A DNA stretch of 61,177 bases, counting the filler, from Dugesia japonica (taxonomy: Eukaryota), in assembly GCA_001938525.1 (NCBI GenBank). It is 5 parts of 5 records of this genome, joined end to end, with 100 filler letters (N's around TTAATTAATTAA, not from the genome) between each part and the next. Parts side by side here need not be neighbours in the genome. Positions count along the whole stretch, not along the records: positions 14,981 to 26,358 come from MQRL01601678.1; 4 more parts are not named here. One strand, given 5' to 3'. Shown in pieces: positions 10,339-49,029 of this stretch (its first letter is position 1; every line of letters starts with the position of its first letter). Under the pieces are notes generated by a model. It was given only the letters and a program-made list of their open reading frames with translations, was not told the origin of the DNA and ran no database searches. The position numbers were made by a program, and so were the translations under genes.

Positions 10339-11793
10339 TTAAAAGACTGTTGGCTGGAGCTCATTAGCATAAAACCTACCAAGTATTTGATTTCCTTCTT
10401 GATCAGAGATTCCATAAGTTAATACTCCATCCCATGGTTGTGATGTATTATTTTCTCTATAGATTTTATAAATAGTATAAATATCTCTAGTCCAATTTAT
10501 TGTGTAACCTTTTTCAAATTTATCTTTAAATCTAAATATTCTAACTCGTTGACCAATTTTTAATTTGTTTTTATTTTTCCAGTTAACTGGAGTAACTAGA
10601 TTCTTGTTTGTTAGATTCCATTTAATTGTTTTCTTTTCTAATGATGAATTATCGTTAACTGGACTGCTGGCCAGTTCACTGGCTTGCTGGGGAGTAATAT
10701 TAATTGCACTGTGAACTGTATTATTGTAATCATCGGCTATAGATTGTAACAAATCAATATTCCACTTTTGATTACCCTGTTTAGTAAATAATTTAAACAA
10801 TCTTCTTTTGAATGTTCTAATTACTCGCTCTACAAAAACTGCTTTACCTCTCATTTCTGTTTCTAATAATGTAGAATAAAAATTAATATCATTCTCGATA
10901 CAAAACTCTTGAAAAACTTTATTATAAAATTCTCTTCCATGATCAACCCATAGATTATTAGGAATACGATTACTCTTTTCAATTAGATTTTCAAATCCAT
11001 CTTTTACTTCTTGACCAGTCTTGTTATTTAATCCTTCAATAAATATAAATCTAGTATATAAATCAATTACTATCAAGACTGTAGTCAGTTCTCTTCTAGC
11101 TGGAAAATTAGGAGATCCAATAAACATTAAATCAGCTGACCATGTTTCATCTTTAAAGAATAATTTAACTTTAAGAAACTTTTTAGCTTTTCTAAAAGGT
11201 TTATGAAGTTCATTAGCTTCTGTAGAAGTTGACTGTAAACCAGCTACTAGTCCTGATCCTGTCGTATTCACTCCAGCTCCTAGCATCACTTTACCCTTCA
11301 TTGCTAATTTAACTATTCCTCTTTGAATCTTTTCTGCTAGAGTTGGATCTTCTATATTATTTAAATCATGAATCATGTTTACATCTGCAACATGTCTATC
11401 TCTTATGTCTTCACTATTGTAAGCAACATCATGTTTTAAAGCAGCTTCATCTACTCTATTTATTGGTTCTTCACCTGGTTTCGGAAATAGATTACCATCA
11501 GCATCCTGCTCCAATCGAATGTCCAATCTTGTTCCTGGTCCAGTGTAATTATGACCAAATAAATGCCTTTCACCTGGATACTTTTCAGTGGTAAAAGGTT
11601 TTAATAAAGTAGAAGTTACTTTGGAAGATTGTAAGTCACCTCCAGTTACAGTTCCAGATTGCTGGGCAGTGGATTGTTGGTTGTTACCTTTACCATTGCC
11701 ATTGTTCTTTGAACATATTTTTCTATGTCTTGCTCTATTAGACTTTGCTAAATATCTATTACAATTTATACACAATTCTTTTTCTACTACCAT
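10339..11793 (-). CDS. Fusion of C2HC zinc finger, parvovirus-type phospholipase A2 and retroviral-like (rve) integrase
   Basis: PLA2: NYTGPG, VDEAALKHDVAY, HVAD. Integrase: ELHKP, WSADL, WVDHGREF, VERVIRTFK, YNNTVHSAI, GRFYANELQ. Confidence 0.92.
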   Translation of the reverse strand: MVVEKELCINCNRYLAKSNRARHRKICSKNNGNGKGNNQQSTAQQSGTVTGGDLQSSKVTSTLLKPFTTEKYPGERHLFGHNYTGPGTRLDIRLEQDADGNLFPKPGEEPINRVDEAALKHDVAYNSEDIRDRHVADVNMIHDLNNIEDPTLAEKIQRGIVKLAMKGKVMLGAGVNTTGSGLVAGLQSTSTEANELHKPFRKAKKFLKVKLFFKDETWSADLMFIGSPNFPARRELTTVLIVIDLYTRFIFIEGLNNKTGQEVKDGFENLIEKSNRIPNNLWVDHGREFYNKVFQEFCIENDINFYSTLLETEMRGKAVFVERVIRTFKRRLFKLFTKQGNQKWNIDLLQSIADDYNNTVHSAINITPQQASELASSPVNDNSSLEKKTIKWNLTNKNLVTPVNWKNKNKLKIGQRVRIFRFKDKFEKGYTINWTRDIYTIYKIYRENNTSQPWDGVLTYGISDQEGNQILGRFYANELQPTVF

Positions 11794-11831
11794 TTATTAA
11801 TAACATTATTTGGTGTTGCTACTTAGCGTTA

Positions 11832-13151
11832 CTATTTTAACTGGCTAGTAACAATTGGTACAGTTGTTCTAAGTCCTGCTAGCTGACCAGTTAGACTTGG
11901 TAAATTAAAATTCTTTACATCTTGACCTTTAATATTCTCTACAAACATTACTTTACCATTTGATATCTTTAATTCAACATGCTTCTCTAAAAGTATTAAC
12001 CAATATAAATTACCAGTCATTTCACTATCTTTAGTTATGTGGCATGTTAAATCTACATTGTTAACAGTCAACTTTTCATCTTGTGCAGAACAATCAAAAC
12101 AAAAGATTGGATAGAAGCTTGTCCAATCTTTAATACTTAATTGAGGTTTAGTAGAAAATGAATTACACATGTCAATATACATTTGATATGGAAACATTAC
12201 ATTATTATTAACTACATCAAATTCAACTCGAGCATTTGGATAGTAGACATTATTTAATTGTAATTTTATAGTCTTTAGGTAATAGTTGTAAGTCTTGTCT
12301 GGTTTAACTATAGACTGTTTTAATGTAAATAAATTATTATTCAACTTGTATGAATTAGTATTACACTTGTAACCAATAATAACAAATCTAGGTCTATATG
12401 GTAAATTACCCATCTTTATTGAAAAACTAGTACCAGATGATATAGAAGTATTTCTTATTTCTCTTTCCAAGAATGAAGATTGAATTGGTTTATTAGTTGA
12501 TAGTCTTTCTAAATAATGTAATTCCATCTTTGGTGCTAAAGTCCATTCAGGTATATGTAATTCAAGACAGTCTATTTGTATTTCTACTTTATCATCTGTA
12601 CTTCCAAAGAAAATCTTTTCATTCATTATTTCTCTATTACAATCCAATTGAATAAAGGTATTAAATAATAGTCTATTGTAATTTGATAAAAAGCCAAATA
12701 GATTCTTTAGAGGATAATAACCTTCATACTTGGTTAAATATAATTCTTGTCTCTTCTTTGAACTATCTTTTATTGAATCAGGAATCCATCCATAAGCTTG
12801 ATGAGACTTTTCACTAGCCTTGTCAATTAATATTAAATTAATCATTTTAGAAGCTACATCAGGAAAGGTTATTGATTCAATATAAGTAGATCCTAATTTT
12901 AATCTCATTTGTGAAAACAAAGCTGGAAAGAAATCATTCTCTAATGTAGTAGTTGGTTTTTCATTTTTAAAACTAATTCTGAAATACATTTTGGCATTTC
13001 CAATATCTAAAGGATTAGTATTTTGTAGTGATTGGAAAGTTACATCACCATTCTTGTTCAAATTAACCATTGACCCAGCTGTTGGAGAAATTTTCAATAA
13101 ATCACTTTTAGTTTGCACATGAATAAAATTTACGTTAAAGTCCAAGTCCAT
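11832..13151 (-). CDS. Major capsid protein (double jelly-roll, hexon-like)
   Basis: 439 aa, beta-rich; ALFSQMRLKLG..IE, YYPLKNLFGF, RPRFVIIG, LNNVYYP, YPIFCFDCS; position in the Polinton gene set. Confidence 0.87.
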   Translation of the reverse strand: MDLDFNVNFIHVQTKSDLLKISPTAGSMVNLNKNGDVTFQSLQNTNPLDIGNAKMYFRISFKNEKPTTTLENDFFPALFSQMRLKLGSTYIESITFPDVASKMINLILIDKASEKSHQAYGWIPDSIKDSSKKRQELYLTKYEGYYPLKNLFGFLSNYNRLLFNTFIQLDCNREIMNEKIFFGSTDDKVEIQIDCLELHIPEWTLAPKMELHYLERLSTNKPIQSSFLEREIRNTSISSGTSFSIKMGNLPYRPRFVIIGYKCNTNSYKLNNNLFTLKQSIVKPDKTYNYYLKTIKLQLNNVYYPNARVEFDVVNNNVMFPYQMYIDMCNSFSTKPQLSIKDWTSFYPIFCFDCSAQDEKLTVNNVDLTCHITKDSEMTGNLYWLILLEKHVELKISNGKVMFVENIKGQDVKNFNLPSLTGQLAGLRTTVPIVTSQLK

Positions 13152-13515
13152 TTGGTATAAAAATTATTTGGTTCAGCCAGTTGGCTTACTGCTACTAGCG
13201 TTGTCAAGAGGCTTGTCACTATTAGAAATTGCACCAAGGTGCTTGAAAAATTTAATTGCTTTCTCTTTTATTTTTCTTCAGTTAAAGTATATTATAATTG
13301 TAATAATTATCGATATTATTATTATTATAATGCTATATCGATAAAACTTTAATTCTACTCTTAAATCAATTATCATATTTTGGTAATTGATTTCATTATC
13401 TTCTTTTTTTTTTTAAAAGTTTTTCCATCCCCTCACTTATTTCACACAATATACTTGAATTACTTATTATTTCTTCTGTAATCATTTTCTATAGAAATTA
13501 TTTAAGAGTATTGTT

Positions 13516-13578
13516 TAAAGATTACAGTTTAAAGATTATAGTTTAAAGATTATATTTTAAAGATTATAGTTTAAAGAT
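13516..13578. repeat. 14-bp tandem repeat (TTAAAGATTATAGT-like, about 4.5 copies)
   Basis: ttaaagattacagt ttaaagattatagt ttaaagattatatt ttaaagattatagt ttaaagat. Confidence 0.8.
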
Positions 13579-13936
13579 CATTGTTCTTAATCTTGTTAAA
13601 AAAGTCTTCATCCTTCTTCAAACTTTTTATTAAATACTTTTTATTTTCATCTTTATACTTTTTAATAATTTCTTTGTATTGAATAGTTTTATTTCTGAGT
13701 TGTAATTTATGTAACTCTTGTAATTTATTTATTTCATCATTTAAATCATAAGTTACTTTTTTTCCTGTTTTAACATTTTCATATCCTTTTTTATAAACTT
13801 TGTAACTTATGAATAATTTTCTAATGACGTCTTCTTTTTCTTTTTCACTTTCCAATTTATTTAATAATTTTTCTAATTCTTCATATACCTCTTTTGCAAA
13901 TTGTCTATCCTCTCGAATTAATTTTAAGTCATCCAT
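13571..13936 (-). CDS. Polinton accessory hypothetical protein (Lys/Glu-rich, helical)
   Basis: 121-aa ORF preceded by TAAGAAATG, like other genes of the element. Confidence 0.55.
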   Translation of the reverse strand: MDDLKLIREDRQFAKEVYEELEKLLNKLESEKEKEDVIRKLFISYKVYKKGYENVKTGKKVTYDLNDEINKLQELHKLQLRNKTIQYKEIIKKYKDENKKYLIKSLKKDEDFFNKIKNNDL

Positions 13937-13952
13937 TTCTTAAGGAAACTTT

Positions 13953-14153
13953 TTAATTAAATTCATTTTCATTTATATTTAAAGTACTTCCATGTCTAAT
14001 TGAATTTCTATTATTATAAACATCTTTTAAAAAATTACTATTTTCTATTCCGTTATTATATATTGTTTTTGGAACAGAATTTATTAATTCTTCTTCTTCT
14101 TCATTATTATTATTTACTATAGGAGAAGCTGCCCCTCCTTTAACATTTTCCAT
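13953..14153 (-). CDS. Small Polinton hypothetical protein (MENVKGGAASP...), likely true start at 14153
   Basis: ATG overlaps the end of the upstream ORF; the longer predicted N-terminus is a low-complexity overlap. Confidence 0.35.
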   Translation of the reverse strand: MENVKGGAASPIVNNNNEEEEELINSVPKTIYNNGIENSNFLKDVYNNRNSIRHGSTLNINENEFN

Positions 14154-14673
14154 TTTTTTTATTTTGATTTCTATTAGGTAAAACTTTTGTTTCTTCTTCT
14201 TCTTCTTCTTCTTCAAAATAATGTTCTTTCTTATTATTATTAATATGTTCTTGTAAAAATTTATAATTGCAAGCATTGAATTTGGGGAATTGAGCTTTAT
14301 CATTCATTGCAGAGATTAATTTTAATTTTATGATCCTACTCTCTTTTATTCTTTCTTCTTCTTTGTCTATTACTTTTTTAGGTTTAAATTCCATTAATGA
14401 TGTTTTATTTTTTCTATAATAACACCCATCTTTATTAGGTAAAAATAATGAAGTTACATTATCATATTCAAATCTATTATTTTCAGTCTTTTTCTTTGGT
14501 TTTAAAGGTTTTACTATATTTTTTTTTCTTAATATTTTATTAAGTTCACTAATATTTACCCTTATTTTTTTAGAAATTTGTGTATTAGTTAAATTATAAT
14601 CTGTTTTTTTTGTATTTAAATAATCTTCAAGAATAATTTGTTCTAGTTCATTTAACACATTATATGCTGCCAT
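14140..14673 (-). CDS. Polinton accessory basic protein, possible N-terminal HTH
   Basis: LTNTQISKKIRVNISELNKIL resembles a helix-turn-helix; first gene inside the right TIR. Confidence 0.5.
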   Translation of the reverse strand: MAAYNVLNELEQIILEDYLNTKKTDYNLTNTQISKKIRVNISELNKILRKKNIVKPLKPKKKTENNRFEYDNVTSLFLPNKDGCYYRKNKTSLMEFKPKKVIDKEEERIKESRIIKLKLISAMNDKAQFPKFNACNYKFLQEHINNNKKEHYFEEEEEEEETKVLPNRNQNKKNGKC

Positions 14674-14806
14674 TTTCTATAGGAAAAAATTAGCGTTTAG
14701 TAAAAAAAAAAATTCTTCCCTCTTCTCTCTTCTTTTTTTTCTCTTCTCTCTTCTTTTTTTTCAAAATGATCCAAATCGAGCCAAATCGAGCCAAATTGAT
14801 CCAAAC

Positions 14807-14880
14807 TCAATCATCACAAGAAAAAAAAGCAATTACATCATTTGATGATAAACGATACATATTAGAAGATGGAATAACTA
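14807..14880 (+). repeat. Inner part of right terminal inverted repeat (matches 517-590)
   Basis: 74-nt perfect reverse complement running into the scaffold end; preceded by 10-bp ccaaatcgag-type repeats. Confidence 0.9.
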
Positions 14881-14980
14881 NNNNNNNNNNNNNNNNNNNN
14901 NNNNNNNNNNNNNNNNNNNNNNNNTTAATTAATTAANNNNNNNNNNNNNNNNNNNNNNNNNNNNNNNNNNNNNNNNNNNN
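14881..14980. other. Artificial scaffold spacer N44-TTAATTAATTAA-N44 (also 26359-26458, 37915-38014, 48928-49027)
   Basis: Four identical 100-nt spacers with a six-frame stop linker. Confidence 0.97.
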
Positions 14981-15834
14981 AAGCTAGTTAAAATTTACAT
15001 AAACTTTTCTGTAATAATGACTCTAATACTGACAATTGACTATATACAATCTACTAATTTTTCACTCAATTAATTGTACTTTGATTGTACTATCCATCAA
15101 ACCAAATAATTCAGTCAATCATTTGCATATGTTCCACTATAATATAATAAAATCCTTTGCAAATATAGGTTCAACAACACTCCTACCGGACAAAAAATCG
15201 GGTTTATCAAAGAAGAACGCGAAATGTAATCAGTATCACTTGAGATTCTAAGAAAAAATTCCACCGAAATGGTTATCTACAGAATGTCATATCAAAATAT
15301 CTAACGCAAAATGTGCTATGGAATGATAACAAAAAAATGAATAGAAAAGAAACAAATACATTAATTAATTAATTAAAAATTTATACTAACTTTCAAATTG
15401 AAAAAATAAAATCATTTTTTTTGAAAATTTTTTTGTAACTATAGTAAATTTTTAAAAAATATTTTTATATTATTTTCTATTTTTATCCATAAAAATAAAA
15501 ACTATTTCCATTATGAAAATATATAAAATTTCCATTTTCCTTAATGAAATAGGTATATATTTATGAAATTGGTGTATAAATTATTTGAATTTGTTAACAT
15601 TTTATTCGAATTTTTATATATCTTAATGAGATTAGTGTATGTCCTAATGAAATCGATATATTTGTATGAAATAGGTATTTATATTTTAATGAAATTAGTA
15701 AAATTAATGAAATTTAAAATCAGGAGATAAAATTTCAAAACTAAAATTTAAATCAAATTTTTTTTATTAATTTATTAACTTATGTGAAATAGATTATTAA
15801 ATTATATGAAACACCTTGTAAATATTATATTATT

Positions 15835-15880
15835 TAATAATAATAAATATTATATAATAATAATAATAGTAATAATAAGG

Positions 15881-15938
<58 letters not shown>

Positions 15939-15988
15939 NNNNNNNNNNNNNNNNNNNNNNNNNNNNNNNNNNNNNNNNNNNNNNNNNN

Positions 15989-16022
<34 letters not shown>
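15835..16022. repeat. (TAA)n microsatellite (others at about 33003-33046 and 38015-38080; (TATAT)n at about 49700-49915)
   Basis: Direct reading. Confidence 0.95.
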
Positions 16023-16024
<2 letters not shown>

Positions 16025-16415
16025 GTAGATGGATGTGTCAGCACTGAGCCACCTGCCACTCGATGGCAAAGTGGCTAACGATTTCATTGGTTGAATTGTG
16101 GCTAGAAAATGTTTTATTTTCGGTTCGAAATGGTCTCAAAATAGCTCGGGAAGTTAAAGTTTTTGGTTCAAATTTTCGGTCAATTTTTATTGTATGATCT
16201 TAAATTTGGTATTGATTGTCCTAGAATTGAAAAATGAACATTTTTTGTATAAGCTTTGCTATATGAAAAGGCTTGGTTCTCTGATAAAAGGTAAGTCAAC
16301 ACTGAGACAATTTGACTTAATTTTGAAATTTCTCAACCAAACAATTCAACCAATGAAATCGTTAGCAACTTTGCTGGGGGGGAAGGTGACTCAGTGATGA
16401 CACGTCCATCTACTT
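16023..16415. mobile_element. MITE-like element with about 75-bp imperfect TIRs
   Basis: aagtagatggatgtgtcagcactgagccacc..gctaacgatttcattggttgaattgt (16023-16099) vs its reverse complement at 16341-16415; no coding capacity. Confidence 0.8.
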
Positions 16416-17152
16416 AAAAAAAATAATAATATTTAATTAAATAACATTTAATAATAAAATAAAATAAATCAATAAAATTTAGACATTCGTAATTGTTGTA
16501 TTCAGACAAACAATTGGTTTCGGTTGAGTGAAATCATGAGAAAGTAAGGAGTAAGCAAATGTTTACTATTTCAATGGAGAAATAAAATGAAATTAGCAGA
16601 TTTTTTATGAATTTGTTTGAATAAATTACAGAGAAAGAAAATAGGGAATGAAAAGAAAAGATTAGTTTTATTAAGTAATTTTATTTTTATTTTGTTGTAT
16701 GAATGTAATTATTTTTAAAATTGATTTATAATTTATATACTTATTTACTTATTTTTATTTATAATACTTTGAAAAAATTAAGTATTTGATATAATATTTT
16801 TCAGATTAATTAAGTGGATATTTATATAAAAGAATTGTGATGTAATTCACTCGGATTTTTCGCGGTGATTACACAAATTGAATCTATTTGACCATTTTAA
16901 TAATATTGATAATTATTTAACTATAGCTTCAAATAGTATTGGTGAATATGGTTATTTTAATTAATTAATAATAATTCTTATATTATTATTTTAAACTATC
17001 CCAACATATACTTTCGTACAACATGTANNNNNNNNNNNNNNNNNNNNNNNNNNNNNNNNNNNNNNNNNNNNNNNNNNNNNNNNNNNNNNNNNNNNNNNNN
17101 NNNNNNNNNNNNNNNNNNNNNNNNNNNNNNNNNNNNNNNNNNNNNNNNNNNN

Positions 17153-19010
17153 GATGTCTTTTGATGTTATTCGTTGATTTATAAATGTTCCATTAGAGGA
17201 AACTATTAATCTTGGTTGTGAATAATGTGAAAAAATCTGACTGAGCATGATTTTTTAAGTGTGTTTGCTTTTAATGAACTATTGAGTTTTGTTATATCTA
17301 ATATACATTTTTGTCTAATGATATATGGCACAAACAAGTTGATGCTATGAGTTCATCTGTTGCTCTTACTTTAGATTTTTTGTTTATTTCAAATATGGAA
17401 GATAAAATTGATTTGTTTACTGAAAATAAAACATTCAATTGAGTTCTGACCTTGTTTATAAATATGAATGTAATTTGTGTAATGCCACATACATTCGAGA
17501 GACTTTCAGTCATCTCTATACAAGAATTCAGGAGCATAGTCGAGTTTGTAGTGGAAATAATATTGCTGAACATAACATTAATTGGGAATCAGTTGTTAGA
17601 ATAAATAGTTTTTAAATTTGGTACAGAAACTTTTAAGATTATTGAGAGAGAATTATGTATGAATAAATTATTATTAGATCAATCAACACAAAAATTAATG
17701 TTCAAAAAGGCTTTCTAGGTCTTTATTGAATGTTTTTATTTCATTTGATTTATTGAAAAGATTGCATAATTGATTACATAATCATAACTTTTAAAAGGAT
17801 TTTTCATTGTATATTGTATCTTAGGATGATACATATTCTGTCTAAAAATGTTGTACTAAAATATTTATTGAAATAGCGTTTAAGAGTTTGTATTGTTATT
17901 AATAGTATTATTATTGTTCAGATCACAATGATTATTATAATTGGACAACGCTGAAAAGATTTTTATAAAATCTTTTCTTTAATAAATTACAACTTTTTAA
18001 ATAAATTAAATAAAATAAAAAGGGAAATATTATTACAATAAAATTTACTTTAAAACTATCTTACCAAAAATTTATAAAAAGTATACTAAAATTGTAGACA
18101 AATGAAATTTACTTTTTTTTACAATTCAANNNNNNNNNNNNNNNNNNNNNNNNNNNNNNNNNNNNNNGATTCATAGATTTTAAATATGTGGGAAATTTTT
18201 TTAATTTGATATATATTATATTATATTATTTCATTAAAATAAAGAAAAAGCTTCGATCAAAATAAAATGTATTTGTAAAGAAATTAAAATTTTCGACAAT
18301 AGTCTTCAGGAACATGATGACTTATTGATTGATTCAATGCAATAGATCTTTGTTACTCAATTCTTTAGATTTTATCGAAATTTTATTNNNNNNNNNNNNN
18401 NNNNNNNNNNNNNNNNNNNNNNNNNNNNNNNNNNNNNNNNNNNNNNNNNNNNNNNNNNNNNNNNNNNNNNNNNNNNCATTTTTCGACCGGAAAGAGTCTT
18501 TCAGCTCTTATTCTTTCACCCTTTATTATTCCAATTTTCTTTCTGATGGTAGTATTACTACTCCAAGGTAAAATATGTCACTGTAAAATGGTTTCATATA
18601 CAACTGGGTAAGTTATAATTCACCAGATTTCTTTTGCATTAAGGTGTCCAGAAAAGGAATCTGAAAGTCGATTGACTTCTCTAAAGTGAATTTAATGTTA
18701 TCATTAATACTATTGACTAGTTCTAAAATATTTTCTAATGAAGAATTAGCAACAAAATAAATATCGTCTATATATTTGAACCAAAGATATATCTTCTTCT
18801 CAGCTTTGAGAAAATTTTTATTTTCAATGAAGTTCATAAAAATTATCGTTAAAATAGGAGACAAATTGTTACCCATTGCAAGACCACTTTTTTGTTTAAA
18901 AAGCTGTTCACCAATAAAAATGTTGTCAGAGAATAGACATAAATTGATAAAATAAATTATGAACTTCATTGAAAATAAAATTATTCTCAAAGCTGAGAAG
19001 AAGATATATC
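17153..19010 (-). mobile_element. Penelope-like retroelement fragments (RT core at 18613-18990; probable downstream domain at about 17153-17580)
   Basis: FKQKSGLAMGNNLSP, KYIDDI, NIKFTLE..IPFLD are Penelope-type RT motifs. Confidence 0.8.
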
Positions 19011-19482
19011 TTAAGTTTTAAAATTAAGTTTCAAAATTTACAAAAAAAATACAAAATTAAAATTTTTACCTATAATATAATAATTGTTAAAATAATTTCA
19101 AAATTCCTAATATTTTAAAATTATAATCAAATAAAATTTTAAAAAAATTTGAAAAATCACTAATATATAAAAATTTATAATAAAAAAAACTTTAAAAAAT
19201 CTCTAATATATGAAAATTTTATCAAAACACAACTGAAAATTAAATATATAAAAAATTTTCTATTTGATTAAAAACATTTAGAGAGTAAATTTAAAAATAA
19301 AAATTAATAATTAAAATAAACCAATAAAATTTCGATAAAATCTAAAGAATTGAGTAACAAAGATCTATTGCATTGAATCGATCAATAAGTCATCATGTTC
19401 CTGAAGACCATTGTCGATAATTTGAATTTCTTTACAAATACATTTTATTTTGATCGAAGCCTTTTCATTATTTCAATGAAAT
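18229..19482. repeat. About 155-bp inverted repeat pair (about 18229-18387 and 19323-19482) bracketing the Penelope RT fragment
   Basis: Near-identical reverse complements, e.g. cttcaggaacatgatgacttattga / tcaataagtcatcatgttcctgaag. Confidence 0.8.
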
Positions 19483-19906
19483 CTCAAATGCGATCAATGG
19501 TTAAGTCCTACAATTATTCTCACAATAATTGTAATTATAAATATTATATTAGGTTAAAATTTATTTTTTGAAACATTTAAATATGATTCCAAATAATATA
19601 TTAAAAGAAAATGACATTACAGATTATTAAAATAAGAAAACATTTTTAAAATGCAAATATATTTAAATAATTGTTATATATCATAATAGTTAAAAATATT
19701 CACTTTAAGAAATTATTTAGAAAAATAATTAAAATCTACGTAAAGTATATATAGTAAAATAAAATCAATATTTTTAAAATATTTTATTTTAAAAGTTTAA
19801 AAATGAAAATTAAAATTTTCAGATTATCTGTTTGAATACTATGGATTATTCTACATCTTTTTTACTTTCATCAAAAACTTGTGATAAAACATAAAACAGT
19901 GTACGG

Positions 19907-20046
19907 CAAAAATGGTGATTTTAAAATAGCGATCTTAAAAATGGCGACCACAAAATAGGAATCTTCAAAATAGCGACTACTTCAAAATAGCGGCTACTTC
20001 ATAATGGGGAACACTTCATAATGGCGACTAATTCAAATGGCGAATT
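19907..20046 (+). repeat. Degenerate 14-17-nt tandem array with AAAATGGCG-like core, upstream of the retroelement polyprotein
   Basis: aaaatggtga, aaaatagcga, aaaatggcga, aaaatagcgg, ataatggcga, caaatggcga. Confidence 0.7.
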
Positions 20047-20665
20047 TAATGAAAAATTAGAGGATATAGTACCGGAAAAATTGCAAGCTGAACATTTAAA
20101 TAATATATCACAAAGATATGATGAGCAAGCATCAGCAGGATCAGATCAAGGACTTATAAGAAGTTTAATCAAATTGGTACATGCTGATCTATATGATTGT
20201 ATAATAACTCAGAGTAGACCACTAATGATATTTGAAGATATGAAACTCATATTAAAAGAAGTAAGCAAATTGATAATAGCACATCCAGAAAGTGATGATT
20301 ATAAAGTAATAAAAACAATGATGAAGGAAAGAATAAATAAAAACAAAGGAGTTACAGCTATTTTGTATCTAATACTCAAGAATAGAGAACAATTAGTTGA
20401 GAGACCTGATAAAAACATTGTGGTCGTAGAGCAAATAGTTAATCAATTTTTTTACAAAGGAATTAACGCGTGGATCACTCAAGAAAGAGGTTGGGAAACG
20501 TTATATCCAACAAGTAATTGTAAACAGAAAATTCAGCAAACAGAACAGGAAGATGAAATAAAGAAACTCATTAATAAAGAGACAAAAAAATCAAATCGAC
20601 CACTAATGGGTACAATAATAACAATTATAACAATGTGTTTGGAATTAGCAAAAGGAGCAAATGCG
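20021..20665 (+). CDS. Bcl-2-like domain followed by a hydrophobic anchor/signal peptide (N-terminus of polyprotein)
   Basis: BH2-like NAWITQERGWETL; BH1-position ERINKNKGVTAILYL; N106-W151-W158 spacing (45, 7) equals human BCL2 N143-W188-W195. Confidence 0.6.
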
Positions 20666-22440
20666 ATGGTAGCATATGATTGTAACACTCCAAAATGGGG
20701 AAAAAAGTAATCATTATTAGATGTAGAAAATTTCCCAGAGGCGCACCTGACTAAAATAAAAATATCAAATCCAATAATCATGCATTTATATCAAGAATCT
20801 GATTTTGTACATGCAGACGCATATGAATGTAGTATAAAATTTGAAGAAGAAGTTTCATATTGTTATACCACGCAAAGTATACCACTAATACCAGCTCGGT
20901 CCCCAGACATAGTGGTAATAGATGCGAGTGATTGTGAGAAAGCGTTTAAAACAAAAACGTTGAAAGTACATGGTAATGAATTACAAGTAAGAGTTTGTGC
21001 GAAAGTAAAGCAAAAAGTGGACATTGTAGGATGGTCAACCGCGAGTGGATATTGTAGAGGGGAAATAATAAAATATCGGGGCAAATGAAATCTGACATCT
21101 TAGTTCGAAGGCAATATCATGTTGAACTAAAGAAAATAAAAGTAACATTTGATGCTGCTCCGGGAAAAATGATGACACATCCATTTTGTAGCTTAAAGTA
21201 CACAAGTTGTGATACCGGAGAATCGATGATGGTGTATAAAGTAAATCCATTTGAATGTACACTTACGAAATTAAGGACAGTTGGAATGAGAGAAGTTAGT
21301 GGAACTTTACCAACGGATAAGCCACCTAACATATAAGATGCAAAAAGGAAAGCAACAGTGATTGGGGAAAAGACAACACCAACAATATATATATCAAATT
21401 CAACACAAGAAGCATTAAGACGTATTGAAAAAGGAGTAGATATCAAGTGTAGAGTAGAAGTGACAGTAACAAATTATAATGGGTTATATCTATCAACAAA
21501 AGAAATAAAAGATGCCAGACCAGGGGTTGATAAACTGGATGTAAAATAGCTACATATTTTAATAATAAAATTGACTTTATCTATCATGAAATTTTAAGAC
21601 AAGTAGATAGAATATATTAAGAAACAATGATGAAAAATTGCAAAAATAAGCGAAAATTGCTAAGAGCAAAAATGGCAATGGAAGTAACAAATCCGGATTT
21701 AGTAGCAGCACTCTTGTTTGAAGAAAGAGGAACATTTGGAAGAATAGTGGGAGAAACTTTAGTGAGTTTTAAATGTAAACCAGTAACAGTTACGCTTACA
21801 GATCATGAGAAATGTACTAATGAATTACCAGTAATTTATAAAGGAGAGAAAGTATTTTTGCTTCCAATAACAAGAATTCTATCAGATAAACATTATCAAC
21901 CAAAAGTGATTNAAAAATGTAGTAATATTCTTGATACTATGTACAAAATAACTGAAGAGGTATGGATAACAGTGTCGGACAGAAAGACAGCACCAACTCC
22001 ACTGATGATGGAAATGATAAAGCTCAGTAGAACAACAGAAATGGAAAGGATTGATAATATGGAAAATCGTGGTATTTATACAATTAACGATATNNNNNNN
22101 NNNNNNNNNNNNNNNNNNNNNNNNNNNNNNNNNNNNNNNNNNNNNNNNNNNNNNNNNNNNNNNNNNNNNNNNNNNNNNNNNNNNNNNNNNNNNNNNNNNN
22201 NNNNNNNNNNNNNNNNNNNNNNNNNNNNNNNNNNNNNNNNNNNNNNNNNNGTAGATAGATTTTTGGGGGGATTGCAATGGTTTGGCAATATATTCTCATG
22301 TATTTTATTTGGGTGGTATGTCTTAACATTTTTAAAAATTAGCGGGTCATCAAATAATTTCTCTAAGACAACTACATGCAGTTTTCGGTTACACATGGAA
22401 ACTAAAACCATGTTGCTGTCCATTTATTGCAAAACACATG
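20666..22440 (+). pseudogene. Chuvirus-like (class III/gB-related) envelope glycoprotein, with 3 stops and 3 frameshifts
   Basis: AYDC..SLLDV, LYQ..C..YC, GYCRG, TYFNNKIDFIY, GETL..KCKPV.V....CTNELPV.Y.G..VFL.P.TRIL, GIYT, TM WFGNIFSCILFGWYVL, LHAVFGYTWKL. Confidence 0.82.
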
Positions 22441-22669: not shown

Positions 22670-23010
22670 AAAATAATAGACCAAAAACAGACATCATAAT
22701 AAATGGAATTAGTATACCTTCGTTAATAGATACAGGAGCAGTATGCTCAATAATAAAAGAATCATGGTTAAATAAAGCCCAAAGACAGAAAATGAAAAAC
22801 TATAAACCAGATGGTATAAAGTCATTTACAGGTCATATAATAAAAACAAAAAGGATAATTGAGTGTACGGTCACAATTGGACAAGAAATTGTTACTTATT
22901 TAGAGTTATGGAAAAGGGAACACAGAATTGTATTTTAGGTATGAATTTTCTGGCAAGATTAAAAGGTTATGTCATTGATCTACAAGATAGCATATTTAAA
23001 AGTGGTAACA
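22670..23010 (+). pseudogene. Retropepsin aspartic protease
   Basis: SLIDTGAVCSII; ILGMNFL after a frameshift. Confidence 0.88.
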
Positions 23011-23603
23011 TCATTACCAGTGCAAGATAAAGGTAATGTGATATGTGCAACAGACTNNNNNNNNNNNNNNNNNNNNNNNNNNNNNNNNNNNNNNNNNNNN
23101 NNNNNNNNNNNNNNNNNNNNNNNNNNNNNNNNNNNNNNNNNNNNNNNNNNNNNNNNNNNNNNNNNNNNNNNNNNNNNNNNNNNNNNNNNNNNNNNNNNNN
23201 NNNNNNNNNNNNNNNNNNNNNNNNNNNNNNNNNNNNNNNNNNNNNNNNNNNNNNNNNNNNNNNNNNNNNNNNNNNNNNNNNNNNNNNNNNNNNNNNNNNN
23301 NNNNNNNNNAAATTGTAGTGGAGGAACAACAAAATAGAGTGAATTTACAGAGGCAGAATAAACAAGTTCCGACTATGAAATCAGGGAAAAAGGGGTGTCA
23401 ATTAAATAATCATGAATTATTTGAACTTATACTGAAGAAACAAAAGAAAAATGAAAAACTAACTGACAAAGAACTAATAAAACAAAAACAAATAAAGTAC
23501 TATGAGAAAGCAAAAATAACAAAAAAAAATCTTACAATAAATCAGCAACAACAACTACAGAAACTGCTAGACAAATATGAGGATGCATTCGCTAAACATC
23601 AAT

Positions 23604-23810
23604 TTGAAACAGTTTAGACCATTTATATATGGAACTGAGATAATTATCCGAACAGATCATAAACCATTAGAGGGTTTGTGGAAAAACAAGGATGCATCCA
23701 GTAGGATATTGAAATGGGCAATGAAAATCCAAGATATGAGCATACGTATAATATACAAGCCAGGTAAAGCAAATTAAAATGCTGATGCATTATCAAGAAT
23801 TCCAGAAATA
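23604..23810 (+). pseudogene. RNase H C-terminal remnant (RT and RNase H N-terminus absent)
   Basis: KQFRPFIYG..IRTDHKPL..RILKW..IYKPGKAN*NADALSR. Confidence 0.85.
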
Positions 23811-23959
23811 AATATATTAGAAATGATGTCAATTGTTATAACTGGAACAAATTTGAAAACGTTTCTAGAAGAACAAAATAAAGATAAAAAAATACAAGAC
23901 ATTAAAAAGATGATGATTCGAGAAAAGAATACTAAATATAAAATGTATAAGAATTTTCT

Positions 23960-25080
23960 TATGTACAATAACTGATGGTTGTACCAGATTCTTTAAAACA
24001 ATTGTTACTGCTACAATATCCTGATGGAGCGCTCGGAGGACACTTATCCAGTAGAAAAACCAAGACTTCTACAAAAATATTATTGNNNNNNNNNNNNNNN
24101 NNNNNNNNNNNNNNNNNNNNNNNNNNNNNNNNNNNNNNNNNNNNNNNNNNNNNNNNNNNNNNNNNNNNNNNNNNNNNNNNNNNNNNNNNNNNNNNNNNNN
24201 NNNNNNNNNNNNNNNNNNNNNNNNNNNNNNNNNNNNNNNNNNNNNNNNNNNNNNNNNNNNNNNNNNNNNNNNNNNNNNNNNNNNNNNNNNNNNNNNNNNN
24301 NNNNGGAAGCGTTTCCTGCCAAAGATGAAACAGCAGATACAGTAGCAAGGTTATTAGTTGAGAAGATAATTTACAAATATGGAGCGCCAAGGAAGCTGTT
24401 ATCAGATAGAGGAAAGAGTTTCCTCAACAAAGTAATTCAACGAGTAACAAATATATTTGATATTAAGAAAATAAATACAACGGCTTATCATCCACAAACT
24501 GATGGGTTAGTTGAAAGATTTAACAGCACATTATGTAATAGATTGTGAATAAACATAAAAATGNNNNNNNNNNNNNNNNNNNNNNNNNNNNNNNNNNNNN
24601 NNNNNNNNNNNNNNNNNNNNNNNNNNNNNNNNNNNNNNNNNNATCTTATGTTTCTCAGAAAAAATCATATGCCAATAGATATAACATTTGAACCAATTGT
24701 GTCACAATATATGGACAATCCAGATTACGTGTCAAAAATGCAAGAAAGATTACAAGAGGTATATAAACAGGCAAATCTAAAAGTAAAGTTCAAACAGGAA
24801 CAATACAAATATTATTATGATCGAAATGTCATTGAACATAGTTTTCAAGTGGGGGATAATGTGAGAATAAAGACACCAATTACACAGAAGGGATTAACAA
24901 ATAAACTAGCAAGGCCTTACAAAGGTCCATATGAGGTAGTAAAGACAACCCCTACAAATCTGCATGTGATAAAAAACAAAAAAGATGATCCCATAATTGT
25001 GGCAGTTAACCGATGCAAAACAGCAGAAGCAGAAATTGAACCTAAAAAACAACACAAATATAATCTTCGATCAGGATCAC
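23960..25080 (+). pseudogene. Gypsy-type integrase
   Basis: GGHL, YGAPRKLLSDRGKSF, TTAYHPQTDGLVERFN, FQVGD.V, KL...YKGPYEV. Confidence 0.9.
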
Positions 25081-25094
25081 AAAATACACTACCA

Positions 25095-25898
25095 CTTTTT
25101 ACACTAACTTTAGTGACATTGTTGACAGTAGGTGTAGCTCAATTAGAGAAGATAAAATGTTCTAGTTATATAAAAACGATAATTTATTCAGATAGAATCA
25201 TACTCAGGGCACCTGATAATATAACGATCGCTGCAACGATAAAAGATAGACCAATCGCATACGTTAAAGATATATCGAGTGAATACACCGGAAAAAAGAA
25301 ATATGTCTTCATACCAATACCAATGAAATTTAACAAGGGGATAGTTCAGATAGAGATAAAAGAACTAGAGGCCAACACAAAATATAGAATTTGGATACAT
25401 TATCGGATAAAAGGAATCAGATCATTAGAACAACATATGTTTACTACATTATCGGAGAAACGAATTATACCACAAATAAGATTAATGACTACTCCCACAA
25501 AACAGGAAAAGTTGAGTACAACCAAATCACAAATAGAAACAACTATTCATCATAGTACACTAGTATATANNNNNNNNNNNNNNNNNNNNNNNNNNNNNNN
25601 NNNNNNNNNNNNNNNNNNNNNNNNNNNNNNNNNNNNNNNNAATAATAACACGAAATTAGATTACCAACAAATACGACACAAAATTCTACAGATGTGGGTT
25701 ACAACAACAATAAAACCATTTAACATAAAAATATTACATCATCCTTTTTCAATACTGGGAATGGCTGCATTACTCTTCCTCCTGGCTTTCATAGTCACAT
25801 TAATCCAAATGCATAAGCGATATAGGTGGAAGAGGCAGCGTTATCGTCGTCGCAATGCTCCACAAATTTCGAACTATGCCCAATGGACATTGGTCTGA
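25095..25898 (+). CDS. Type I membrane protein module fused after integrase: signal peptide, FN3-like domain, Thr-rich stalk, TM, basic tail
   Basis: LFTLTLVTLLTVGVA; IEIKELEANTKYRIWI (FN3 L.P.T.Y motif); ILGMAALLFLLAFIVTLI followed by HKRYRWKR. Confidence 0.65.
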   Translation, partial: LFTLTLVTLLTVGVAQLEKIKCSSYIKTIIYSDRIILRAPDNITIAATIKDRPIAYVKDISSEYTGKKKYVFIPIPMKFNKGIVQIEIKELEANTKYRIWIHYRIKGIRSLEQHMFTTLSEKRIIPQIRLMTTPTKQEKLSTTKSQIETTIHHSTLVYXXXXXXXXXXXXXXXXXXXXXXXXNNNTKLDYQQIRHKILQMWVTTTIKPFNIKILHHPFSILGMAALLFLLAFIVTLIQMHKRYRWKRQRYRRRNAPQISNYAQWTLV

Positions 25899-26282: not shown

Positions 26283-26358
26283 AAATTAAATTCACTTTAG
26301 AGAAGTCAATCGACTTTCAAATTCCTTTTCTGGACACCTTAATCCAAAAGAAACCTGG
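26283..26358 (+). mobile_element. Penelope-like RT fragment, second copy in opposite orientation
   Basis: IKFTLEKSIDFQIPFLDTL; reverse complement of about 18623-18695. Confidence 0.7.
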
Positions 26359-27696
26359 NNNNNNNNNNNNNNNNNNNNNNNNNNNNNNNNNNNNNNNNNN
26401 NNTTAATTAATTAANNNNNNNNNNNNNNNNNNNNNNNNNNNNNNNNNNNNNNNNNNNNTAGTTTAAGTAGCAAGTCGAATATTTGTGAAATAATGATTAA
26501 AATTCTAAACTCTGAGTTTATATTGAAATTTGGTACATTTTGATTTATAAATAATTGAAAATACCATTTAAATTTCTCACACAAAATTTTTGTAAACACA
26601 AACGCTTAGTCTCCATTGTGTGTAATTATCGTTTCAACACAGCTTACACAATTTCTTATCAAAGGTCTTTAAAAAAAATTTATTATGCAGGATTTTTATC
26701 TTGAAAAATATCACTTAAGCATATTTTGAAGAAGATAGAGAAGTATGTGAAACTAATTACTCATAAACGTTTGACAGAATGAAAATAATTCCATGCACTA
26801 TTTTATGTATCATGAACAAATTCCAATATTTTTTGTTTTAAAATTTTTATTCAGAAAATACAAAATTGGTCTATTGATTTTATCTATGTCTAGGTAAATC
26901 ATCACACACAAGTTAAAAACACATTAAAGGTTCATTCTTGGGAAGTATTAACCAAACCGCCGCATTAACCAATACTTGCTACTATAGGTTATCATTTTTT
27001 TCATTCGATAGTACTCANTATATGAACAGCATTTAAAACCGAAAGAAGTGGAAANTTTGGTTTCCGAATTATTTCCCTCAAAACAAGAAAACTTCTGTGG
27101 GAACAATATTAACTAATCGTCTGAAAGATTTAGGGAAATTTGTAGCAAGCGATTGGCATTAATTTAAATAAAATACTTTTGACGTTTCTCTTGAAATTAT
27201 AGTGTTTTGTTTGATAAAATCAACATTATTTGTCATTGCACTTATTAAAGAGGAGCTAGCACATATCCCAAGTTTAATTAAAAATATTCATACTTATGGA
27301 AAAAATTTAAATATAAAATTTATAAAAACTTTAAAAATAGTTAATTGATTTTCAATTAAATATTTAATAAATTTCGCACTACAATTTCAATAGAATGTTG
27401 CATCTTACTAAACAACACAATATCATTATTTCTCATATGCATTGAAATATGATTATATCAATTGATGTGTGTCTCAGATAATTCATATTAAAACTTAATC
27501 AATACAGCAATTAAAATATGCAAATTTTTTGTATGTTAAAAAAACACCATTACGTGACGAAATCATTTTTTCTAGAACTACGATGATTACCTAATTTATT
27601 TGATTAAAAGTCAACTTTACAATCCCAATATTCTAAATACAATTTAAATAATACGTATTTTTTATGAATTAAAATTCTAAAAAAAAATATCTCAGT

Positions 27697-37402: not shown

Positions 37403-38014
37403 TATATGTGGCATATGAACTTAAAAACTTAAACATTTTATATGTATAGAACAAAAAATGGGGTCCAGAAATAATTTTATTGAAATTATGTGGTAGATCC
37501 AGTTCGAAAAAAGAAGTAAAAAATAGCGTTTACAAGCTGAAAATTTTGTTTATATCTCTTAAGTATGGAAAAAATTCATCCAGAATAGCCGAAATGGTTA
37601 TAAGCGCCTGTACCTATTGACTAAAAGCTTTTCTCGACCAAAAATAGTTGTAGCTTTAAACAATATATATACCAAAAAAGCTGAATAAGTTTGAAATCAA
37701 ATTTCGGTTAGCACCTGGCACTAGCACTAAATAAATTTCGAATGAATTTTCATGTTTCAGAAAGGATGAGAACAGAATATACTCTGTTCTTCTTGGAGAG
37801 TTGTTTCAAATGCAAAAAAAGTGTAACCAAATAATTCGCAAAATATGAGATGAAATAACGCATTAAATATTTTTTAAATTTCAAAATAAATGCAAAAATA
37901 TATTTAAAAAATATNNNNNNNNNNNNNNNNNNNNNNNNNNNNNNNNNNNNNNNNNNNNTTAATTAATTAANNNNNNNNNNNNNNNNNNNNNNNNNNNNNN
38001 NNNNNNNNNNNNNN

Positions 38015-46948: not shown

Positions 46949-49029
46949 TTCAATAAAATAAAATTTTGAAAACTTTAAATNTTAATGATATTAGTTATTT
47001 AAACAAATACTAATTTAAAGATAAATTTAATTTTTAACCAAAATTGTAATTCCACCATATTTAAATTCATTTATTAAAATTTTGAATTTTAGGAAATTTT
47101 ACTAATATTATTCTTTATTTATTCTATTGTTTACATTAATTTATTCTGATAAATTTTAAAAAATGAGTTATTGATTTTATTTTCTTGGATAATGATTCAA
47201 TTACTTTTTAATGACTATAGTTAAAGTTAAAGGATTGAAAGCCAACAAGATTTTAAATTACCTTTCTTTTGTGAACATAATTTATTTTTTGACAAATTGC
47301 TAATATTTCTATAATATCTTTTTTAGAAATGAAATAATGATTATTGAGAAAATATATATTAGAAGCATACAGTAATTTTTCAACTATATTTAAAATCAAA
47401 ATAGTCTTAATCTTTTTTTCAAATTCATCATTTATTGTCTAAATTTTAATTAAACTAAAATGCAAAAAATATAGGCTATTTGGTTTTATCCTTTACTCTT
47501 AATGAAAAATGATTTAGGATTATTGTAATTGTGAAAATATGAAAATATTGTGTTAAAATATTATATTAAAATACTGCGATATCATATAAAATATTGTTCG
47601 TGTTAAATTCCCTTTTAAGTTGGGCACACATAATTCTTGCTTGGGCTTTTTTAATATTAAAGACTTTTACCGAATCGTTTCAAATTCTTTTAATAAACAT
47701 CTGCTTAATAATTTTCTCGTCGATNTGAGCTTTATCTACTGTCTGTTTTAATCCTCCAGCGAAGGTCCAATATTGTTCGTTTACCTGTTGTTTGCAGCTC
47801 ACCATTTTTATCAATTGTCACATTAAGAAATTTTTCTTTAAAGTTCTCTCGCTTCCTTCAATGATTTAATTTGTTGACAATTTCTTAATAAAACAAAAGT
47901 ATGATGTACTGGCTTCAACAGATTAACTGCTAAAATTTCTGCCACGTCTTCATAGTTCTAGTTGTACGCTTAAAACGAATTTCATGCGTCTCTAATCCTC
48001 TAATTCCTCATCATTTCCTCTAAATTTCTATTCATTAAAATTTTCCTTTACACGATTTGTTATATTTGCTCTTTTATCCTATGTTTGGAATTTTATCTTA
48101 ATAAAATAAAAGAAATAAATGAAGTTACTAATCGATAAATGAATATGACAAATCCTGAAGAAGATAAAATCGAAAATTTGTGGAAAAAACANNNNNNNNN
48201 NNNNNNNNNNNNNNNNNNNNNNNNNNNNNNNNNNNNNNNNNAAAATGATTTAGGATTATTGTAATTGTGAAAATATGAAAATATTGTGTTAAAATATTAT
48301 ATTAAAATACTGCGACATCATCTAAAATATTGTTCGTGTTAAATTCCCTTTTAAGTTGGGCACCCATAATTCTTGCTTGGGCTTTTATTGACTTTTAGAC
48401 TTTTACTGAATCGTTTCAAATTCTTTTAATAAACATCTGCTTAATAATTTTCTCGTCGATATGAGCTTTATCTACTGTCTGTTTTAATCCTCCAGCGAAG
48501 GTCCAATATTGTTCGTTTACCTGTTGTTTGCAGCTCACCATTTTTATCAATTGTCACATTAAGAAATTTTTCTTTAAAGTTCTCTCGCTTCCTTCAATGA
48601 TTTAATTTGTTGACAATTTCTTAATAAAACAAAAGTATGATGTACTGGCTTCAACAGATTAACTGCTAAAATTTCTGCCACGTCTTCATAGTTCTAGTTG
48701 TACGCTTAAAACGAATTTCATGCGTCTCTAATCCTCTAATTCCTCATCATTTCCTCTAAATTTCTATTCATTAAAATTTTCCTTTACACGATTTGTTATA
48801 TTTGCTCTTTTATCCTATGTTTGGAATTTTATCTTAATAAAATAAAAGAAATAAATGAAGTTACTAATCGATAAATGAATATGACAAATCCTGAAGAAGA
48901 TAAAATCGAAAATTTGTGGAAAAAACANNNNNNNNNNNNNNNNNNNNNNNNNNNNNNNNNNNNNNNNNNNNTTAATTAATTAANNNNNNNNNNNNNNNNN
49001 NNNNNNNNNNNNNNNNNNNNNNNNNNNAT

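Follow-up and report, generated by a model that had tools for sequence, protein, structure and literature searches.

A likely Bcl-2-derived domain ahead of the envelope glycoprotein in a decayed Burro-type Gypsy copy of Dugesia japonica

Burro elements and other envelope-bearing retroelements

Viral Bcl-2 proteins occur in large DNA viruses. Among LTR elements, planarian Burro Gypsy elements have been described in which a BCL2-like motif is followed by an in-frame mononegavirus-type env and then by the protease, all within one ORF of 4,873 amino acids (PMC6431247, which cites Grohme et al. for the motif). The occurrence of a BCL2-like motif ahead of the env of an LTR element is thus already published and not new, and the original prediction, which knew of no example in LTR elements, has to be corrected on this point. 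Burro1 is also reported to encode an anti-apoptotic RING/BIR protein (B-IAP) that protects stem cells (Lee et al. 2026, as cited in the available part of PMC13465017). B-IAP is likewise a host-derived anti-apoptotic module on the same kind of element, but it is a RING/BIR caspase inhibitor and not a Bcl-2-like domain. According to an excerpt of PMC8532177, BURRO1 is expressed and PIWI-controlled.

Platyhelminthes errantiviruses are GAG-ENV-POL elements with a gB-type env, and six such elements are listed from Schmidtea mediterranea (PMC13524379, available in part). The nearest of them to the element studied here is Smed_errantivirus_3, with which it shares env before pol and an env of the gB/chuvirus type. 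About 90 of about 180 env positions match, a hand count and not a computed value, and this env identity of only about 50% places the two in different families. In the rows listed there, Smed_errantivirus_3 shares 31-38% identity with four of its five siblings. Its locus of about 14.5 kb equals, by our own arithmetic, the size of the Burro ORF, and the main text of PMC13524379 contains no occurrence of 'bcl'. A functional parallel is offered by the Fsp leader of FIV (PMC10128041, seen in excerpt) and the SP of MMTV (from a likewise partial source), in which a cytosolic domain precedes the Env signal, stays behind after signal-peptidase cleavage and acts alone; the FIV Env signal peptide acts against tetherin. 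Both leaders stand at the N-terminus of an Env ORF of their own and show no homology to Bcl-2, in contrast to the leader described here, which lies inside Gag-Env-Pol.

The window, the whole 61,177-nt stretch of Dugesia japonica DNA that was analysed, holds a decayed Gypsy copy of the Burro type (GAG-ENV-POL) with, quite probably, a Bcl-2-derived domain in frame before env, which would be anchored at the ER in intact relatives. The element is very probably a Burro-type relic, as judged by the published description of these elements. As in Burro/GYPSM1, very large Gypsy-like LTR elements of planarians attributed to Jurka 2007 and Grohme et al. 2018 (described in PMC6431247), a BCL2-like motif stands directly before a mononegavirus-fusion-type env, followed by protease, RNase H and integrase, and there are many copies, with decayed fragments that carry stops and frameshifts. 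In contrast to Burro/GYPSM1, the window copy is devoid of Gag, BIR, MATH, ankyrin and ubiquitin-like parts, of RT and of recognisable LTRs. Since it is truncated at the 5' side, it is classed as a Burro-type relic and assigned to none of the named Burro families. The section on Burro in PMC6431247 does not discuss a signal sequence or topology.

Structure and decay of the copy in the window

Read from its 5' side, what remains of the element is the Bcl-2-like domain, then the charged linker and the hydrophobic stretch, then the class III glycoprotein, the protease, the RNase H tail and the integrase (Table 1), and the position of the dUTPase coincides with an N gap. The glycoprotein is interrupted by stops at 20708, 21334, 21547 and 21618, changes frame near 21061-21085 and 21543-21552, and contains an N gap (22094-22250) and a predicted transmembrane segment (22290-22346). 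The first of these stops lies 12 codons past the start of AYD. Only 929 nt separate the DTG of the protease from the DHKPL of RNase H, and the RT core is absent, no RT motif being found in the six frames of 22900-24100. Behind the integrase, the reading frame continues with a signal-like stretch, about 200 amino acids of polar sequence, a strong transmembrane segment and a basic tail. This extension, for which no significant Pfam match was obtained over 25089-25898, is likely a second lumenal domain. On the upstream side, no CCHC or BIR pattern was found in six frames of 14700-20050 (5.3 kb), and a search for LTRs between 14000 and 36000 revealed no long direct repeat among the families listed (20 of 38). 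These features indicate that the window copy is likely a 5'-truncated, decayed relic, likely without a functional product. Because of the many N gaps in the draft assembly, it could also be a chimera of several copies.

Table 1. Coordinates of the ORF, its motifs and the surrounding element parts in the window
Feature	Nucleotides	ORF residues	Strand	Remarks
229-aa ORF	20021-20710		+	Polyprotein remnant that spans the Bcl-2-like domain and reaches the first glycoprotein residues; premature stop 20708
Tandem array, 15-17-bp units	19908-20037			TRF rows 19908-19947, 19923-19992, 19951-20037
Bcl-2-like domain, Pfam-aligned core	20288-20494	90-158	+	PF00452 E=0.013, below cut-off
BH1-position segment with putative central hydrophobic helix ERINKNKGVTAILYL	20327-20371	103-117	+	
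BH2-like motif INAWITQERGWETL	20462-20503	148-161	+	Two Trp 7 aa apart
Charged linker	20504-20602		+	Lysine-rich just ahead of the hydrophobic segment
Hydrophobic stretch LMGTIITIITMCLELAKGANA	20603-20665	195-215	+	Putative internal signal sequence of the glycoprotein
AYDC, glycoprotein start		218-221	+	Two residues separate it from LMGTIITIITMCLELAKGANA
Class III (chuvirus/gB-type) envelope glycoprotein, broken	20666-22346		+	PF24664 E=1.7e-5 and 1.2e-25 (at 20711-22091)
Aspartic protease, DTG at 22729	22672-22902		+	PF00077 E=7e-5, PF13975 E=2.9e-5
Pre-RT region joined straight to RNase H tail	23042-23735		+	PF17917 positions 62-104, E=5.8e-9
Integrase core and C-terminal domain	23997-24968		+	PF00665 E=5.2e-5, PF18697 E=7e-4; with stop and N gaps
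In-frame extension after integrase	25089-25898		+	Two hydrophobic stretches, 25089-25145 and 25749-25805

The ATG of the ORF (20021) falls within the 17-bp tandem array at 19951-20037, and the array as a whole is probably outside the coding region of the element. Summed contig depth increases about 45-fold at 20048, from about 400 to about 17,800 (bins 19974-20047 versus 20048-20121); this value marks the edge of the repeated part and is not a copy number. The ATG at 20021 was therefore rejected as the start of the element, as it sits in the array and outside the high-depth part. A few RNA reads with loose ends touch the array. The element family is multi-copy, large and diverged: one DNA run (X1) gave 5,843 matched contigs, with 522 at 99% identity or above, 1,405 at 95-99%, 2,787 at 90-95% and 1,129 below 90%, and a run labelled as a second organism (X8) gave 1,007.

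The window contains further mobile elements and repeats. A Polinton/Maverick gene set occupies 476-14676 on the minus strand and comprises a protein-primed DNA polymerase B interrupted by a stop, C2H2 zinc fingers, an adenoviral-type protease, an A32 packaging ATPase, an integrase with a phospholipase A2-like domain and a double-jelly-roll capsid protein. This neighbouring Polinton was rejected as the source, because it lies on the opposite strand and more than 5 kb away, and because the window has no second match of the element. Inverted repeats of 160 nt, 96% complementary and 935 nt apart, delimit 18228-19482 and enclose a non-LTR-type RT fragment (18613-19017, minus strand; PF00078 E=2.4e-6); a 74-nt piece of this feature recurs in inverted orientation at 26285-26358. 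Nested inverted repeats with arms of 55 and 34 nt at 16003-16435 likely represent a MITE, and a piggyBac-like transposase fragment is located at 52338-52685 on the plus strand (PF13843 E=9.6e-12). Paired 44-nt N runs that flank a 12-nt spacer are present at 14881-14980, 26359-26458, 37915-38014 and 48928-49027 and are probably an artefact of contig joining; the spacer at 26359-26458 is a TTAA-type run.

The Bcl-2-like domain and its relatives

The BH1-position segment, the BH2-like motif, the hydrophobic stretch and AYDC are all present in the ORF (20021-20710) as originally described. The predicted spacings were also recovered, with 45 amino acids between N106 and W151 and 7 between W151 and W158. 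BCL2 has the same N-to-W and W-to-W spacings. Shuffling the ORF 100,000 times produced the pattern W[IL]x4GW in 15 cases, and the six frames of the window contain it once; these figures are generous, since the pattern was picked after the motif had been seen. NWGR is the BH1 signature of the Bcl-2 family. Its replacement by NKNK, which the original prediction had noted as a caveat, was borne out.

When 1.84 billion representatives were searched exhaustively with phmmer, a single match was returned, P0001, which is 25% identical over aa 92-229 (E=1.1e-6), and a second relative, P0002, was reached via P0001. Both are fragments without genomic context. When the Bcl-2 part alone was compared with P0001 by BLASTP, aa 92-159 were 20% identical (E=8e-6, a single comparison). 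Word-indexed homolog searches with the window ORF produced no match among 1,573 and 499 candidates of at most 2,000 amino acids; proteins above this length lay outside these searches, and whole polyproteins could therefore not appear. No related loci were found in metagenome contigs or viral contigs. P0001 and P0002 both keep the BH2 Trp pair, the acidic-then-basic linker, the hydrophobic stretch and YDC. They are open across the position of the stop at 20708 and read in frame into the glycoprotein, and P0002 matches the window glycoprotein in tblastn at 35-50% identity, spread over three frames. The layout is conserved across three sequences that are 25-62% identical, with YDC at 61, 62 and 62 amino acids past the second Trp in the window and the two relatives. 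In the relatives, the first 20 residues of the linker have a net charge of -6/-8 and the next 18 of +6/+9.

Conservation of the Trp pair had been proposed as a check of the Bcl-2 assignment, and both relatives retain it; the BH2 motif with its two Trp is present in all three sequences (W91/W98 in P0001 numbering, invariant). The BH1 region is covered by the window and P0001 only, and both lack its Trp and Gly. The corresponding residues of P0001 are DKSR, in which Lys takes the place of Trp, as it does in the window, and Arg is kept. The distance between BH1 and BH2 is 45 amino acids in the window and 44 in P0001.

In Pfam searches with the window ORF, PF00452 was the top of eight weak matches (aa 90-158, 16.4 bits, E=0.013). 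The trimmed window domain ranked PF00452 only third to fourth, with E-values of 0.07-0.09, behind unrelated families, and this decrease makes the window copy alone a borderline case, suggestive but not conclusive. P0001 matched PF00452 with 23.6 bits (E=7.7e-5), followed by PF24664; the curated cut-off of PF00452 is 31.4 bits, above the scores of both sequences. The domain possibly starts further upstream than the Pfam alignment, and may begin near aa 19-44. When a profile built from the two sequences was compared with the PDB, 59 of the 60 rows listed (78 matched) were Bcl-2-family chains, mostly redundant Bcl-xL entries, with a best E-value of 0.11. Single-sequence PDB searches found no Bcl-2 protein and only unrelated weak matches.

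AlphaFold models of the window domain and P0001 are all-helical but of low confidence (mean pLDDT 40.7 and 41.4, respectively). With the low-confidence P0001 model, Foldseek placed Bax and Bcl-xL at ranks 1-6, with probabilities up to 0.90 and E-values of 0.44-2.7, none of which is significant. For the low-confidence window model the list was headed by designed helical bundles, and Bcl-xL appeared only at ranks 8, 9 and 13 (E 1.4-1.9). The BFVD search with the window model yielded nothing significant, and the ESM Atlas gave no Bcl-2 protein and no usable match. A matrix or capsid fold, which would have spoken against the Bcl-2 assignment, was not matched in three fold searches of the low-confidence models. 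The domain was also rejected as the Gag or matrix of the element, because no such match was obtained and the published layout has Gag far upstream.

Like the cellular Bcl-2 family (PF00452) and the viral Bcl-2 proteins of large DNA viruses, the domain combines a BH2 W-x6-W motif with the BH1-BH2 spacing, and it has a putative central hydrophobic helix and a candidate C-terminal hydrophobic anchor. It differs in its score below the Pfam cut-off, in the degenerate NWGR and in being embedded in a polyprotein. In addition, its anchor is located 37 amino acids past BH2 and appears to be a cleavable glycoprotein signal and not a post-translational tail anchor. The predicted Bcl-2 homology is thus upheld by Pfam, the PDB profile and Foldseek, each of them weak. 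Because these approaches converge, although none is individually significant, the domain is called Bcl-2-like; because of its NWGR residues and its Pfam score it is not filed as a canonical member of the family. The likeness is weak but quite probably reflects a real Bcl-2 ancestry.

Predicted topology, possible functions and alternative readings

The hydrophobic stretch after the Bcl-2-like domain is kept in all three sequences, but it is short, and the glycoprotein profile begins on it. It has a core of about 15 amino acids, with basic residues before it and small residues ahead of YDC, and its 15-residue Kyte-Doolittle mean is 1.98 in the window and 2.06 and 2.17 in the relatives. Basic residues, a hydrophobic core and small residues at the cut are the pattern recognised by signal peptidase. 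Position 4 of the PF24664 profile aligns at aa 198 of the window ORF, and the profile likewise starts on the stretch of P0001. Since the profile starts there, the stretch is best read as the internal signal sequence of the glycoprotein, to which it apparently belongs, instead of being the remnant of a Bcl-2 tail. The proposal that a Bcl-2 tail anchor doubles as the glycoprotein signal peptide therefore survives in its second half, as the stretch plausibly opens the glycoprotein, while its first half probably needs correction. The suggestion that cleavage by signal peptidase would by itself release the domain does not hold: the domain lies inside a giant Gag-Env-Pol polyprotein of about 4,900 amino acids, and a second cut further upstream would be needed.

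For intact elements, the following topology is proposed, which we consider reasonably likely on the basis of these sequence features. The hydrophobic stretch would insert co-translationally, its basic side facing the cytosol, and the glycoprotein would be threaded into the ER lumen. Signal peptidase would cut on the lumenal side before the YDC motif, while the transmembrane segment of the glycoprotein at 22290-22346 would act as a stop-transfer sequence that brings protease, RT and integrase back to the cytosol. The Bcl-2-like domain would remain cytosolic, tethered to the ER membrane by the predicted signal sequence of the glycoprotein, and a second cut by the element protease or a host ubiquitin-like protease would part it from the upstream Gag/BIR/ubiquitin-like section. 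No paper on such a signal-anchor topology or on a test of the Bcl-2-like domain was found, although Grohme 2018 and Lee 2026 may cover them. The topology appears to be a reasonable addition to the published layout.

In this position, the domain might dampen apoptosis in cells that express the element, as a second arm beside the BIR/RING IAP and with a BH3 groove that is probably altered. Anti-apoptotic activity in intact elements is proposed because an IAP sits in the same kind of element; it is a tentative proposal that falls somewhat short of an even chance. The fuller version, in which the domain of intact Burro-type elements would be a working second anti-apoptotic arm that is cut free, held at the ER by the env signal and equipped with a non-canonical BH1 groove, is somewhat less likely still.

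Bcl-2-fold proteins of poxviruses act as innate-immune antagonists. The domain could be Bcl-2-derived but now non-apoptotic, a cytosolic leader of Env that works either as a matrix-like membrane adaptor or as an antagonist of innate immunity, in the manner of the poxvirus proteins or of the FIV Env signal peptide with tetherin, and such a leader function is nearly as likely as an anti-apoptotic role. It would fit the degenerate NWGR in two of two sequences, the lack of a canonical BH3 motif on inspection by eye and an anchor that resembles an ER signal sequence and lacks a basic C-terminal end, and long retroviral Env leaders have separate jobs in FIV and MMTV (PMC10128041 for FIV; both from partially available sources). 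On the other hand, BH2 is well kept, P0001 retains the BH1 Arg, and the same polyprotein carries a BIR that is reported to be anti-apoptotic (PMC6431247; available part of PMC13465017).

Much less probable is a coincidental resemblance, in which an unrelated helical domain would happen to contain a W-x6-W motif. Every score is individually weak or below threshold, as such a coincidence would predict, but Pfam, the PDB profile and Foldseek point to the same family, the more intact relative P0001 scores better, the BH1-to-BH2 spacing is kept (45 and 44 amino acids), and earlier authors assigned the same BCL2-like identity (PMC6431247).

The Bcl-2-like domain of the window copy also carries changes of its own. 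Nearly all other copies differ from it at 20330, 20344 and 20349 in BH1 and at 20486 in BH2, and these motifs of the window copy thus carry private changes; none of the 40 difference rows listed, of 232, falls in the two Trp codons. In two RNA runs, about a quarter of each of which was read, 0 of 51 and 0 of 6 reads were at least 95% alike, and the matched RNA reads therefore derive from other copies. It is highly improbable that the window copy has become a stand-alone host gene, in which the array-derived ATG and the stop at 20708 would delimit a 229-aa membrane-anchored Bcl-2-like protein. In favour of this reading, the Bcl-2-like part stays open over 229 codons, whereas four stops and two frame changes fall within about 1.4 kb of the glycoprotein that follows. 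With breaks at this density, however, such an open length is nothing unusual (other open remnants, with N gaps, reach 278 and 449 codons), the changes in BH1 and BH2 are those expected of neutral decay, and the RNA reads speak against it.

With the domain and its position already in print and the copy a relic, the window copy itself adds little, and the possible significance lies with the intact Burro-type elements. If their Bcl-2-like domain is active and anchored by the Env signal, these elements would block cell death at two points, at the caspases through the IAP and at the Bcl-2 step. Such a two-point block would resemble that of large DNA viruses and would bear on the persistence of the elements in planarian stem cells, and every round of envelope synthesis would also yield a membrane-bound death suppressor.
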